DNA of 35,714 nucleotides from an uncultured Candidatus Saccharibacteria bacterium (lineage in GTDB: Bacteria > Patescibacteriota > Minisyncoccia > Sungbacterales > SURF-37), in NCBI GenBank assembly GCA_964373495.1, contig CAYJUW010000002.1, positions 1-35,714 on the forward strand, written 5' to 3'. Each line of letters opens with the position of its first letter. Position 1 is the first letter of the stretch. Position numbers and translations under genes: made by a program. Shown here piece after piece: positions 4,461-30,300 of the stretch. A model generated the notes under the pieces. It saw nothing but the letters and a program-made list of their open reading frames with translations, was not told the origin of the DNA and did not search any database.

Positions 4461-5264
4461 TTACCCGTAATATTTGTCTTTATAAAACCGAATCAGCTGC
4501 TCAACCTCGGTGATGATCTCCGGCGAGCCAATGCCGACCTTCAACTTCTGCTGCACGCTATCGAGATCCGTGGCCCCTTCCAGCACCGCCTCCTCAATGT
4601 CATGATCGGTGATATTCAACTTCGGATCAATGACCCGCGCCCCCTCCACGATGACCCGCCCGTGCTGGCCGGTGCGATGGAAATAGTCATTGGCCGCCTT
4701 GCGAAAGGCCTTATCCGCCAGCACCGAGCAATGGATCTTGCGGTTCGGCAGTCCGCCCAGGCGCTCCATGATGTGCTGCGGCCTGACCTGCAAGGCCTCG
4801 GCAATCGGCATCCCGTCGTTTTCGGTAACCATGACGGAAAAAATTGACGTTGCACTAATTGCGGACGCGCACCCGAACGTACGCCATTTCAATTCCTTGA
4901 TCCGCTCCGTCTCCGGCTCGATCTTCAGCCACATGACCATGAGGTCGCCGCACGCTGGGCTCCCGACCATACCCTTGGCGCTGTACGCGCCCTCGTCGGG
5001 ATCCTCCAGCATTAAATTCCGCGGATTGAAAAAGTGGTCCTTGACGATCGGCGAATAGTACCACTTCTCACCGGTGAACTGGTTGACGACGTCAATCGGC
5101 GCTGGCGGCTCACCAGCCCGCCCCGCCCCGTTAGAAATATCATTTCTAACGGGGCCCGCGCTAACCGAAGCCGCTGCCGAGGTTTGCTGCAGGGCGGACC
5201 GGTTGACGACGTCAACCGGCGATGGGGCAGCGTCCGATGGCTGGTTGTCGTGTTCTGCGCTCAT
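4461..5264 (-). CDS. nifU: NifU/IscU-type Fe-S scaffold with repeat-derived N-terminal extension and cysteine-less BFD-like C-terminal domain
   Basis: IscU core (VKDHFFNPRN, SPACGD, GCASAI, HCSVLA). About 75 aa precede the usual start. The tail ITDHDIEEAVLEGATDLDSVQQKLKVGIGSP resembles a BFD-like domain without its Cys ligands. Confidence 0.85.
   Translation of the reverse strand: MSAEHDNQPSDAAPSPVDVVNRSALQQTSAAASVSAGPVRNDISNGAGRAGEPPAPIDVVNQFTGEKWYYSPIVKDHFFNPRNLMLEDPDEGAYSAKGMVGSPACGDLMVMWLKIEPETERIKELKWRTFGCASAISATSIFSVMVTENDGMPIAEALQVRPQHIMERLGGLPNRKIHCSVLADKAFRKAANDYFHRTGQHGRVIVEGARVIDPKLNITDHDIEEAVLEGATDLDSVQQKLKVGIGSPEIITEVEQLIRFYKDKYYG
5081..5221. repeat. 21-nt direct repeats GGTTGACGACGTCAAYCGGCG (5081-5101, 5201-5221), 120 nt apart, bracketing the palindrome inside nifU
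   Basis: Read directly, one mismatch. They encode the duplicated peptide P-x-P-(V/I)-DVVN. Confidence 0.85.
5126..5154. repeat. Palindromic repeat copy 1: CCCCGTTAGAAAT-ATC-ATTTCTAACGGGG (inside nifU CDS)
   Basis: 13-bp perfect arms. Translated in frame as GPVRNDISNGAG. Confidence 0.9.
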
Positions 5265-5329
5265 GGTAGAATGGACTACAGAGTACGGAATGGAGCTAAG
5301 GCAACAACTCCGCCGCTGGGAGGTGTCCC

Positions 5330-5590
5330 GTGCCGCTCATATCAAGTGACCGCTCATTCTTCGATAAGGTCGTAGCCGGAAAAGGCCGCGCGCCGGGGGA
5401 TATCCATGCCGATGCCGCAGCCGAGTTCACCACCGGAGATGGAGAACGCGCCTACGCCGTCCTCTATCCCTTCGACCGCGGCGTGGTACGCCAGCTCCTC
5501 GCGAACACCCGAGGTATCGTCTGGCACTACGCCAGCGCCACGTTCCAAGGCCTCTTCCCGGAGTTCTTTCCCACCGCAGCAGTGGCCTAG
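5330..5590 (+). CDS. Hypothetical protein (86 aa, GTG start)
   Basis: GGGAGGTG 5 nt upstream of the GTG. G/C-dominated third positions on this strand. Its own terminator begins at the stop codon. Preferred over the same-phase antisense ORF 5354..5593. Confidence 0.5.
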   Translation: MPLISSDRSFFDKVVAGKGRAPGDIHADAAAEFTTGDGERAYAVLYPFDRGVVRQLLANTRGIVWHYASATFQGLFPEFFPTAAVA

Positions 5591-5616
5591 CACCGGCCCT
5601 GCTGCTTTTATTTGTT
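5576..5616 (+). terminator. Rho-independent terminator of 5330..5590
   Basis: GCAGCAG(T)GGCC-TAGCACC-GGCCCTGCTGC followed by TTTTATTTGTT. The stop codon lies in the loop. Confidence 0.7.
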
Positions 5617-5781
5617 CGTTTCCGACGTTGCGTCGGAGCTGCGAACAGATACCCCCTCTTTTCGCGCCGGATCAGGCGCATTGAATTTTCAAACCGGTTT
5701 TCCTTCTCTCCCCATTCCCGTTCATAGAGCGGCAGCGCAAAAGGTGGGGGTGAACAACCGCAAGCCGCAAGCGTGTGCGGC

Positions 5782-27003: not shown

Positions 27004-27010
27004 CTTCCCC

Positions 27011-27360
27011 ATGTCCATTCGGACGATCTACCCGACCTCGCGGTTCAAAAAATCCTTCCGCCGTTTGCCCCGCGAGATCCAAGAACGGGCCGCCCGGCGT
27101 GAGGAGATATTCGTCGCCGACCCCTTTGATTCACCCCGTTACAACCGGGCGTCCCATGCTTCACCCCGTTAGATAGTTTATCTAACGGGGCAAGGGCCGG
27201 GTTGTAACGGGGTTCACGGCTGGATACCCACAAGACAAAAGGGAAACTGAAGGGGTTCTGGTCGTACTCCGTGGACTTCCCCTGTCGAGTCCTTTTTCGT
27301 TTTATAGATCAAGAAACGGTCATCTACTACGACGTCGGTGGTCATTCGATCTACCGCTGA
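27011..27360 (+). pseudogene. RelE/ParE-family toxin gene disrupted by an 83-nt palindromic insertion
   Basis: The N-part MSIRTIYPTSRFKKSFRRLPREIQERAARREEIFVADPFDS runs into a TAG inside the repeat. The C-part LDTHKTKGKLKGFWSYSVDFPCRVLFRFIDQETVIYYDVGGHSIYR* is in another frame. Deleting 27135-27217 fuses them into an 88-aa ORF. Confidence 0.75.
27135..27217. mobile_element. Nested palindromic repeat insertion (copies 3 and 4), MITE-like, flanked by TTCAC/TTCAC
   Basis: Outer arms are CCCCGTTACAACC (27134-27146) and GGTTGTAACGGGG (27200-27212). Inner palindrome is CCCCGTTAGATA-GTT-TATCTAACGGGG (27164-27190). TTCAC occurs at 27130-27134 and 27213-27217. Confidence 0.7.
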
Positions 27361-27363
27361 AGT

Positions 27364-30300
27364 ATGCCAAGACGCTCTCAAAAAAAATCAAAAGAAAAGC
27401 TAACGCTAAAACCGGAAGCCAATAACGCCTCGGTTCACCCCGTTAGAAACTCGCGCGGCAGGCCGCGCAACTCTGCGCATGAAGCCGCGTCTCTCTGGAA
27501 AGGGAACGGTGGGCAGACAACGAAAGTTTCTAACGGGGCAAGCTACACGGCCAAGGATATTTACGTCCTCAAAGGCCTGGAGCCGGTGCGCAAGCGGCCG
27601 GGGATGTATATCGGCTCAACCGGCATTGACGGCCTGCATCACCTTGTCTGGGAGGTCTGTGACAATAGTTTGGACGAGGCAATATCTGGTTACGCGAAAA
27701 ATATTGCGGTAACGCTTCTGCCTAATAACCGCGTGATGGTGGTGGATGACGGCCGCGGCATTCCGGTTGAAAAACATGCCCAAACGAAGAAATCTGCGCT
27801 CGAGACGGTCATGACCACGCTCCATGCCGGCGGCAAGTTCGGCGGCGAGTCCTACAAGGTCGCAGCCGGGCTGCACGGGGTCGGGGTCTCGGTGGTCTGC
27901 GCGCTTTCCAAATGGATGCGGGCCGAGGTCTGCCGCGCCGGCGCCCAGTACGCCCAGGAGTACGGCCGCGGCAAGGCCGCGACCGCCGTCAAAAAGATCG
28001 GCAAATGCGAGGGTTCGGGCACGGCGGTAACCTTTGAACCCGATCCGGAAATTTTTCCGGAAATCAGCTTCGAGTGGGACCGGATCTTGGAGCGGCTGCG
28101 CCAGCAGGCCTACCTGACCAAGGGCGTGACCATCGCGCTCCGCGACGAGCGCCATCCGGCCACGGCCAAGGACGGATCAGCCCTCATCCCCTCCTACACC
28201 TTTTCCTTTGAGGGCGGCATCGTTTCCTACGTCAAATATTTGAACCGCGGCGAGACGCCCACGCACGAAAACATTTTTTACGCCTCAAAAGAGGTAACGG
28301 CCAACGGCTCGCCGGCGGGCCGGAACATCCTGGTTGAGGCCGCCGCCCAGTACACCGGCGACATCCAGGCGCGCGAGCTCTCCTTTGCCAACCACGTGCA
28401 CACACCCGAGGGCGGCATGCACCTGACCGGATTCCGCACCGCGCTCACCCGGGTCCTGAACGACTACGCGAAAAAGAACGAATACTTCAAGAAGGACGAC
28501 GAGGCCCTCTCCGGCGAGGATGTCCGCGATGGGCTGACCGCCGTAATCTCGGTCAAGCTCCAAGAAGCGCAGTTTGAAGGCCAGACCAAGGCCAAGCTCG
28601 GCAACCCCGAGGCCCGCACCGCCGTGGAATCCGTCGTCGCCGAGGCCCTCGCCGACTTCCTGGAAAAGCACCCCGACGATGCCGCAGCGATCATTGGGAA
28701 GGCGCTGCTGACCCAAAAAGCCCGCAAAGCCGCAAAAGCCGCAAAGGAAACCGTCCTCCGCAAGGGCGCGCTGGAAGGCATGACCCTCCCGGGCAAGCTT
28801 GCCGACTGTCAGTCGCGCGATCCGGCCGAGTCGGAACTTTTCATTGTGGAAGGCGACAGCGCGGGTGGGAGCGCAAAATCCGCCCGCGACCGAAAATTCC
28901 AAGCCATCCTGCCGCTAAAAGGAAAGATCCTGAACGTCGAGCGGGCGCGGCTAGACAAGATGCTGGCCTTCAAGGAGATCCGCGCCCTGATCATTGCCCT
29001 TGGCGCGGCCATCGGCGAGGAGTTCGACGCCTCACGCCTCCGCTACCACCGCGTCATCATCGCCACCGACGCCGATAGCGTTACCGGAGATACGCCAATT
29101 CTCCTATTGGATGCAAAGAAGAACAAACTCGTCCTCCGCCGTGTCGATGAATTCATCCAGGGCTGCGAGGATACTGATCGCTATCGCGTCTTCTCGTTCG
29201 GTGAATCATCACTGACGACCGGTTGGCGCAAAATATACGAAACGATCCAACATCCGCTCCGTTCCGATCTCCTGGAGGTAACTACGGCCTGCGGGTATAG
29301 AGTGCGCATCACCCCATTCCATAGCTGCTACCTACGGGATGGACCGGGGGTAAAAACGGAGAAGGGTTCCCGGCTCCGCGTCGGAGATCGGATGGTGCTT
29401 GCCCGGGCGCTTCCGCGCACCGACCAGGAAATCATCATTCGCCTGGACGAAACGGTGCTCGGCAATACCTACCGGAATCTCTCGATTCGGGTTCCGCTCC
29501 GCACGTTTGAAGCAATCCCCGATGCAGTGTGGTTTGACGTCTCGCCGGAGGCCCTGGCGTTCCTGAAGGGAGAGCGTATGGCGCGCGCCATCTCGCGGCG
29601 GCGTATGGAAAAACTCGTTGGCGTTGGCCGGGGGGTCATCCAGCAATGGGAGGAACGTTTCGACAATGTCTTGCCAGCTGGCCCGCCGTTCCTCGAGTAC
29701 CTCATGCACCTCGGCGTTGGCGTACGGTCGCTCGATCCGCAGGTTTTTGTGCCGATCGAAGCATGGCCATTCCGTACGATCCCGGATTCGGCCGAGGTTT
29801 ACGCTGGCAACCATACGAACCGAGTGTGGCACCGACTCGTCCTCGACGCGGAGCTCGCCTACCTCCTGGGCTGGTACCTCGGCGATGGATCGAGCGGCAA
29901 TTATGGCAAGAATCCGCACCGCTTCCACCTTTCGATCGGCATGGACAAGTTCTCCTACGCGCCGCGGCTCATTGAGCTGATCAACTCACGGCTTGGTTCC
30001 CACGCATTCATTGATCATCGGGCTTCCGGTGGCGTGCTGACCTTCCATTCGCCAACCTGGAAGTTTTTCCTCGAACACCTCGGGCTCTACCGGAAGCGGG
30101 CGCATGAGAAGTTCGTGCCAGACCTAATCTTCAATACCACGCGCTCGGTTCAGGAAGCGTTCCTCGCCGGGCTCCTTGAGAGCGACGGGCATGTCCTAGT
30201 CATCCGCGCTGGGAATCATCCTAAAGTCCTCTTTGGTCATACCACGGTCTCGCGGGCGCTCGCCGAGGGAATCGTCACGCTCTATCGCCAGCTCGGCGTG

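Follow-up and report, generated by a model that had tools for sequence, protein, structure and literature searches.

We analyzed a stretch of 35,714 nucleotides (contig CAYJUW010000002.1 of assembly GCA_964373495.1; hereafter the window), in which the original prediction had placed a family of short palindromic repeats that resemble mobile elements. The palindromes, their flanks and the genes that accommodate them are as follows.

4461–5264, minus strand: gene for an Fe-S scaffold protein with a NifU_N domain, which contains copy 1 as an in-frame addition of 33 nt (11 codons)
5122–5125: left target duplication of copy 1, CCCG
5126–5154: copy 1, 29 nt, arms of 13 bp and a 3-nt loop, in the N-terminal extension of the NifU-like open reading frame (ORF)
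5155–5158: right target duplication of copy 1, CCCG
9274–9277 and 9307–9310: flanks of copy 2, TGAA
9278–9306: copy 2, 29 nt, in the intergenic spacer that separates the MFS gene (7790–9148, minus strand) from the divergent ORF at 9497–9922 (plus strand)
26788–27003, plus strand: ORF of a putative antitoxin, immediately upstream of the toxin gene, intact, without a family match
27011–27133, plus strand: 5΄ part of a RelE/StbE-like toxin gene, 41 codons
27130–27133 and 27213–27216: flanks of copy 3, TTCA
27134–27212: copy 3 (outer), 79 nt, interrupting the RelE-like toxin gene
27164–27190: copy 4 (inner), 27 nt, located inside copy 3 between its arms
27217–27360, plus strand: 3΄ part of the toxin gene, which joins the 5΄ frame only without 27134–27216 (83 nt)
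27364–31143, plus strand: gyrB with a LAGLIDADG intein, which contains copy 5 as an in-frame addition of 105 nt (35 codons)
27438–27538: copy 5, 101 nt, arms of 14 bp around a 73-nt interior, within the part of gyrB that encodes the lysine-rich N-terminal tail

A motif scan recovered the five palindromes at the predicted coordinates: CCCCGTTA(G/C)A (CCCCGTTASA) occurs 10 times in the window, and the 10 occurrences form five inverted pairs. This density is far above chance, as had been claimed, since shuffled versions of the window contained a mean of 0.11 such arms and none of 100 shuffles reached 10; when one mismatch was allowed, the scan of the window returned a single additional stray match, at 12104. 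The perfect arms measured 12–14 bp, so that the predicted range of 12–13 bp holds except at its upper end, and copy 3 carries the variant CCCCGTTACA in both arms. Copies 4 and 5 are each flanked by TTCA and CAAG, which in copy 4 amounts to no duplication. Folded as single strands, the five copies had energies between –12 and –32 kcal/mol, with z scores from –5.7 to –9.6 relative to shuffled sequences. The gene context also agreed with the original prediction, in that one copy is intergenic, two are in frame in the NifU and GyrB genes, and the nested pair lies in the toxin gene.

The comparison of orthologous nifU and gyrB genes that the original prediction had proposed indicates that the segments are insertions, and not ancient protein sequence. 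In nifU, copy 1 lies upstream of the NifU_N domain, which begins at residue 70 of the ORF, and its minus-strand translation is GPVRNDISNGA; because there is no in-frame start codon between copy 1 and the domain, the copy is situated within coding sequence. Orthologues with the same N-terminal extension (77–86% identity) have exactly 11 residues fewer at this site, and the copy is absent from P0001–P0004 and P0011 at the protein level and from L121–L123 at the DNA level. The empty site of these relatives reads ...ACGGGGCGGG..., with the tetranucleotide present once, whereas the gene strand of the window reads CGGG-(29 nt)-CGGG. The insertion in nifU therefore comprises 29 + 4 = 33 nt, including a target duplication. 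No copy was found in ~25 kb of DNA from the three relatives L121–L123, which shows that the expansion is specific to the lineage of the window. The best NifU matches bear the names of Patescibacteria or Candidatus Sungbacteria, and the host of the window is, judging from these protein matches, a Patescibacterium close to Candidatus Sungbacteria.

In the toxin gene, the two halves stay in different frames when only positions 27134–27212 are removed, whereas removal of the 79 nt together with one TTCA (83 nt, 27134–27216) creates an uninterrupted ORF of 88 amino acids. The restored protein matches TIGR02385 (RelE/StbE) over residues 9–85 (E = 3.7e-4; 20.9 bits, with a curated cut-off of 27.9), and it aligns with RelK of PDB 3oei across the junction. 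A metagenome search for an empty toxin site gave no match. Copy 3 thus frameshifts a dispensable toxin gene while the antitoxin stays intact, and a further copy of the element landed inside copy 3. The empty site in the nifU relatives and the restoration of the toxin ORF together indicate that the 4-bp flanking repeats are true target duplications.

In gyrB, copy 5 lies 25 codons into the gene, with no later start codon, and is read in frame as PVRN...SNG, so that 35 extra residues appear just before SYTAKD. The GyrB proteins of related Patescibacteria all start with a short lysine-rich tail followed by a conserved stretch. A 94%-identical relative (L145/P0121), which comes from an independent assembly of another study, shares the insertion. 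It is absent from the 81%-identical P0122 and all others listed. The element of the relative is identical to copy 5 at 98 of 101 nt, and the DNA upstream of it is unrelated. Comparison of the site with P0122 suggests that CAAG would be ancestral and TTCA the four added bases. A search with the 43-amino-acid insert peptide of gyrB returned no candidates. GyrB itself is 1259 amino acids long owing to a LAGLIDADG-type intein, with Intein_splicing and LAGLIDADG_3 matches at approximately residues 594–1099.

The surroundings of copy 2 also differ between the window and a relative. In the syntenic relative L121 (5951–7806, compared with 9149–9990 of the window), a LigT-like gene and the MFS gene are adjacent, whereas the two are ~840 bp apart in the window, where the gap includes copy 2 and the unassigned 141-codon ORF at 9497–9922 on the opposite strand. 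This gap is probably a separate insertion.

We further searched one genome per species for exact CCCCGTTAGA-N(3–33)-TCTAACGGGG, which yielded at least 120 loci, and a second scan of viral contigs yielded 21 loci. The search of other genomes had been part of the original prediction, and further copies proved to be abundant. The family statistics refer to ~160 non-redundant copies from these genome loci, the viral loci and the window. The terminal inverted repeat consists of CCCCGTTAGA and three variable yet complementary positions: stem positions 1–10 were fixed by the search pattern, positions 11, 12 and 13 were complementary in 88, 77 and 71% of copies, respectively, with several pair types, and from position 14 on the pairing was 22–28%, which corresponds to chance. 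The repeat is accordingly 13 bp long. In 13 copies, the same one or two substitutions occurred in both arms (e.g. TCCCGTTAGA, CCCTGTTAAA and the CCCCGTTACA of the window, which was also found in an Omnitrophica metagenome-assembled genome (MAG)), and the arms varied between copies of one genome while they matched within each copy. Exact 4-nt direct repeats surrounded 72 of 131 copies (82 of 163 in the widest set), and 5-nt flanking repeats were essentially absent.

The interior ranged from 0 to 117 nt and showed no relation between subfamilies; the commonest form was a bare 29-nt hairpin, within a total range of 24–137 bp. In the 38-, 40- and 50-nt subfamilies, the interiors were conserved and were found at different sites in different genomes, which indicates that the short forms are copied as such. 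Nested copies were frequent, with more than a dozen composite stretches. In one Patescibacteria MAG (L106), a 41-nt element occurs twice, at 5363–5403 and 6035–6075, with the same flanks (AGCA...TAAG) and interiors that are reverse-complemented, which suggests that the stretch between the arms was inverted in place. In a third copy of this 41-nt element (L004, 4198–4267), a further element replaces the loop. Searches of Rfam at gathering and E-value thresholds returned only tRNAs and sub-threshold matches to miRNA-like hairpins.

The relation of the family to coding sequence was analyzed through reading frames and lengths. One frame of the arms contains TAG and the other two are open, reading PVR(N)...SNG and PLE...LTG. 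The original prediction had stated that the PVRN...SNG frame is used and the TAG frame avoided; this was borne out, and the PLE...LTG frame was found to be used as well, in other genomes. Of the 163 copies, 33 lay within open frames that span 150 codons or more, in unrelated genes that include nifU and gyrB. A length of 2 modulo 3, which keeps the frame when a 4-bp duplication is added, was found in 94 of all 163 copies and in 32 of these 33, the tabulation of frame and length that had been proposed for the intragenic copies. This constraint implies translation of the segments, or read-through at the least, because removal at the RNA level would make the length irrelevant. Judged by their frames and lengths, then, the intragenic copies are read through, and not spliced. 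Both consequences of an insertion occur in the window, where the variable tails of NifU and GyrB tolerate the element and the toxin gene is frameshifted by it.

In prepilin-type genes of Planctomycetota and Omnitrophota (L040, 2511–2545; L071, 2236–2288; L090, 6622–6650; L104, near 4568), the element lies in the G|FT codons. These insertions read ...RGFTPLE...FLTGFTLIELLVV, which doubles the prepilin-peptidase motif, and the inserted peptide could be removable together with the leader. Prepilin genes were also considered as the cause of a preference for TTTAC at the insertion sites and were rejected, as only 3–4 copies could be explained in this way.

According to record titles, and among the matches listed, the carriers comprised ~30 Patescibacteria, ~27 Omnitrophota, ~20 Planctomycetota, ~10 Nitrospirota and ~10 Desulfobacterota loci, with scattered others. 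Most carriers are MAGs, and one copy (L028) lies in the finished chromosome of Candidatus Velamenicoccus archaeovorus LiM (Omnitrophota). No copy was found in the plasmids of PLSDB. Two contigs are binned as archaeal: L055 (Aenigmatarchaeota) has an operon of CheB, CheX, CheD, CheR and MCP genes, and L065 (Methanosarcinales) has a gene for a TonB-C protein. In view of this che operon and TonB gene we rejected Archaea as carriers, and both contigs are probably mis-binned bacterial DNA. L130 and L142 represent one IMG/VR contig of 29,962 bp that is classed as viral and contains four or more copies, of which three have CAAG as the right flank. Possibly the contig is a plasmid or phage hosted by a carrier lineage, and it could act as a vehicle for spread.

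Taken together, these palindromes very probably form one family of mobile DNA elements that are ultra-small and non-coding, duplicate their target and are tolerated in frame. The suggestion of a mobile palindrome that resembles REP (repetitive extragenic palindromic) sequences or miniature inverted-repeat transposable elements (MITEs) and can be tolerated as coding sequence therefore stands as regards mobility and coding, and is refined in that the 4-bp target duplications make the family MITE-like rather than REP-like. If the palindromes were instead conserved functional sites, such as operators or other protein-binding sites, terminators or RNA hairpins, their strong hairpins, the conservation of a 10-mer across phyla and the T-rich sequence that follows some copies would be expected. 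However, such sites would not be present in one genome and absent from a close relative with duplicated flanks, nor would they disrupt a gene, occur 33 times in long ORFs of unrelated genes or be nested in one another, and no Rfam family was matched; we regard this explanation as highly improbable. That the palindromes are chimeras produced by assembly or binning is scarcely credible: although the carriers are mostly MAGs and the two archaeal contigs appear to be mis-binned, the same gyrB insertion was assembled independently in another study, the finished chromosome of Ca. Velamenicoccus archaeovorus LiM contains a copy, and the bias toward in-frame lengths and the target duplications are biological signatures.

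We also looked for an enzyme that could mobilize the family. The original prediction had proposed a Y1 or other transposase, and none able to move the element was found in the window or in the flanks of the copies. In particular, the 36-kb window has no gene for a REP-associated tyrosine transposase (RAYT, a Y1 enzyme) and no transposase with the ends of the family. The only mobile element of this kind in the window belongs to the IS30 family:

11126–12175: IS30-family insertion sequence, ~1050 bp, with 26-bp ends AAATTCCCCTTTGAAATGCAACTGCC
11167–12168: IS30 transposase (NCBIfam transpos_IS30, E = 2e-27)

It was rejected as the mobilizer because its own 26-bp ends are unrelated to the family. 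In the flanks of the copies, no arm pair 0.3–3.5 kb apart encloses a transposase gene, and clustering of all flank ORFs showed that only housekeeping families recur. Each of these loci samples less than 1% of its genome, so that the absence of a partner there is weak evidence. One candidate for a full-length element (L038, 1872–3590) was rejected as a chance arm combined with a degenerate copy at the 3΄ end of a gene. A 4-bp duplication and ends that begin with 5΄-CCC recall IS1380 and piggyBac. However, the ends of the IS1380 members ISEcp1, IS1247 and IS1678 are unrelated to those of the family beyond CC, and a metagenome scan (80 loci; a weak test) detected only close relatives of IS1247 without the family ends. 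The lead was dropped, as neither matching ends nor a transposase close to a copy was found.

Because the element codes for nothing, an enzyme made elsewhere would have to move it. At insertion, 4 bp of the target are duplicated, with a preference for TTNA followed by C. As for a classical MITE, a transposase acting in trans would cut the target with a 4-nt stagger. We tentatively consider such a transposase the likeliest mover, at a probability close to but short of even, and a staggered cut fits best with the many different tetranucleotides that are duplicated. A length of 24–29 bp is too short to loop as a duplex, so that the two ends probably meet by folding, as a hairpin or cruciform.

Several observations weigh against this staggered-cut transposase. 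The preferred target, TTNA and then C, is asymmetric: when exact duplications were oriented as TTNR, the next base was C in 44 of 62 and a pyrimidine in 59 of 62, and the preceding base showed no preference. Palindromic tetranucleotides such as TTAA were rare among the duplications. The orientation of the duplication relative to the interior was fixed in all six copies of the 40-nt subfamily and all four of the 50-nt subfamily, and since the 40-nt copies are intergenic, selection on coding sequence is not the cause of this lock. Approximately 45% of copies have no identical flanks, and the unequal pair TTCA...CAAG recurs in unrelated genomes, on a viral contig and twice in the window. A duplex of 24–29 bp is also far below the size that allows synapsis of both ends. 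Finally, no autonomous partner was detected (only four unpaired arms in ~1.1 Mb of flanks, a level that corresponds to chance, with ~2 expected), and tblastn with three IS1380-family transposases found no match in the flanks of the copies. The asymmetry, the orientation lock and the unequal flanks fit poorly with a symmetric DDE transposase. Together with the maintained hairpin and the tiny size, the asymmetry and the lock are better accommodated by a strand-specific mechanism that acts on folded DNA.

Two mechanisms that act on folded DNA were considered, and each is less probable than the staggered cut. An HUH/Y1 enzyme (of IS200/IS605 or RAYT type) might move the element as folded single-stranded DNA, or a recombinase might do so through an excised intermediate that retains one flanking tetranucleotide; the element would be inserted beside a matching TTNAC-like site, so that the apparent duplication would be made up of the target copy and a carried copy. 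The hairpin kept by compensatory change, the tiny element and a target that is asymmetric, T-rich and orientation-locked to the interior would all be accounted for, and IS200/IS605 elements target TTAC or TTGAT. The same holds for flanks that are alike within a subfamily (e.g. TTTA in five of the six copies of the 40-nt family), for the class with two different legitimate flanks and for the lack of a partner flanked by terminal inverted repeats, as expected for a single trans-acting gene. However, many different tetranucleotides are duplicated, even in a single genome (CCCG and TGAA/TTCA in the window; CTAA, CCAG and TAAA in one Phycisphaerae MAG), and an internal guide that matches the flank was not detected, since the flank or its complement occurred 17 times in interiors compared with a permutation mean of 15.9. 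Nor was there a strand bias relative to the local coding strand, and known HUH elements have two different ends and produce no duplication; on balance we judge such an enzyme possible, if rather unlikely. A hairpin-only transposon, of which the 26–29-nt stem-loop is the whole unit, is a speculative possibility that we rate no higher; such a unit would travel as folded single-stranded DNA or in cruciform shape, and its excised form would keep one flanking tetranucleotide. If an intermediate keeps one flank in this way, a target as asymmetric as TTNAC, the fixed orientation and flanks of the mixed TTCA...CAAG type would all follow. It is much less probable that the palindromes are immobile scars, left by incompletely repaired excision or internal deletion of a lost full-length transposon with 13-bp ends. 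Scars of this kind would be tiny, would retain their duplications and would have unrelated interiors whose length varies continuously, as observed from 0 to 117 nt, and no transposition-competent short form would be needed. However, no full-length element or unpaired end of one was identified in the ~1.1 Mb, the same 14–27-nt interiors appear at different sites in different genomes, and neither the strong mode at 29 nt nor the sharp 13-bp limit of the stem is expected from random deletion; the arms, moreover, vary between copies of one genome but match within a copy.

Several other features of the window were noted. Perfect palindromes at 23293–23336 (44 bp, GGTGTTAACTTCAATTGACCGA|TCGG...) and 16858–16891 (34 bp, AACACCGGGCGCGCCTG|CAGG...) have no relation to the CCCCGTTAGA family. 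AT-rich spacers at 2074–2161, 2848–2949, 3567–3655 and 10561–10690 contain short, approximately heptameric repeats (TAATCTC, AATTTTC, CGAAATC and TTTAGGG-like), which are laid out as large imperfect inverted repeats and possibly serve as bidirectional terminators; heptamer arrays are known from cyanobacteria, and these spacers recall them. A free-standing LAGLIDADG_3 ORF (12974–13888, minus strand) directly adjoins a tRNA gene (12897–12969, minus strand) and may be a homing-endonuclease remnant. A dCTP-deaminase-like gene (32998–33918, minus strand) adjoins a gene at 34188–35654 (plus strand) for a thymidylate-synthase-like protein fused to PterinBD-DUF4346, and this unusual pairing might be linked to nucleotide modification.

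We compared the family with known systems of short mobile or palindromic DNA. Bacterial MITEs include Correia/NEMIS of Neisseria, RUP, Nezha and Chunjie, and are roughly 80–400 bp long. The family resembles them in that it is non-coding, has terminal inverted repeats, a target duplication of fixed length and many dispersed copies, sometimes in genes, and would be moved in trans. Unlike MITEs, it has a modal length of 29 bp (24–137 bp), unrelated interiors in its subfamilies, a 10–13-bp end that is common to several phyla and an asymmetric, orientation-locked target, and the loci searched, each less than 1% of a genome, yielded no parent insertion sequence with these ends. REP sequences, bacterial interspersed mosaic elements (BIMEs) and REPINs are hairpin palindromes of 20–40 nt with many copies, which are moved, if at all, by RAYT, the product of one gene that acts in trans and is not part of a flanked transposon. 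The family shares with REP the short hairpin-forming palindrome and the many copies. However, REP sequences are extragenic and species-specific, produce no target duplication and have a GTAG/CTAC hairpin foot, whereas the family occurs in ORFs with a sequence common to several phyla, duplicates 4 bp and has a CCCC/GGGG foot, with GTTAG within the stem.

Elements derived from IS200/IS605, such as PATE, have different left and right ends with subterminal hairpins and produce no duplication; in contrast, the family consists of a single symmetric hairpin with a duplication and has no internal guide related to the flank. Such elements also insert in a strand-specific manner beside a fixed tetra- or pentanucleotide; in the family, the TTNA-C preference and the orientation lock would agree with this, whereas the use of many other tetranucleotides and the lack of strand bias relative to genes would not. 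IS1380 duplicates 4–5 bp and piggyBac duplicates TTAA, and the termini of both begin with 5΄-CC(C). The 13-bp terminal repeat of piggyBac, CCCTAGAAAGATA, has CCC...TAGAAA in common with the family, although the target of the family is not palindromic, unlike TTAA. Integron attC sites (5΄-RYYYAAC ... GTTRRRY-3΄) differ in the order of their hexamers, which is reversed in the family (GTTAGA and TCTAAC); the ends of the element, moreover, are 4 nt beyond these hexamers. To our knowledge, this palindrome sequence family has not been described, and a search of papers for the sequence strings returned only primers and unrelated matches.

Two other systems are similar in particular respects. The Rickettsia palindromic elements, said to have been described by Ogata et al. 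in 2000, are reportedly ~100–150 bp long and lie in frame in protein genes. The family is likewise palindromic, in frame in protein-coding genes and read as an extra peptide, but its copies are mostly 29–53 bp long, have clear 4-bp duplications and occur across phyla, whereas the former are confined to Rickettsia. The small dispersed repeats of Nostoc and Anabaena, attributed to Elhai et al. in 2008, are reportedly mobile repeats of 21–27 nt whose hairpin shows compensatory changes. The family shares with them such a hairpin, nested insertions and varied contexts; however, the sequences are different and the small dispersed repeats are confined to cyanobacteria.

If confirmed, the family would set a lower size limit for a target-duplicating mobile element and would raise the question of how ends only 26–29 bp apart are processed together. 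If the unit is in fact a hairpin-only transposon, few known mobile DNAs would be as small, and its mechanism would match neither classical DDE elements nor IS200/IS605; it would then have spread through at least five bacterial phyla, adding peptides to essential proteins such as GyrB. The presence of the same 10–13-bp end in distant phyla points either to horizontal transfer or to an enzyme that many members of groundwater and sediment communities share. For annotation, PVRN..SNG or (F)TPLE..LTG together with a flanking 4-bp repeat offers a simple signature of recent insertions and broken genes. The family represents a source of in-frame peptide insertions, including those in essential genes, in the streamlined genomes of Patescibacteria and in those of Omnitrophota and Planctomycetota.

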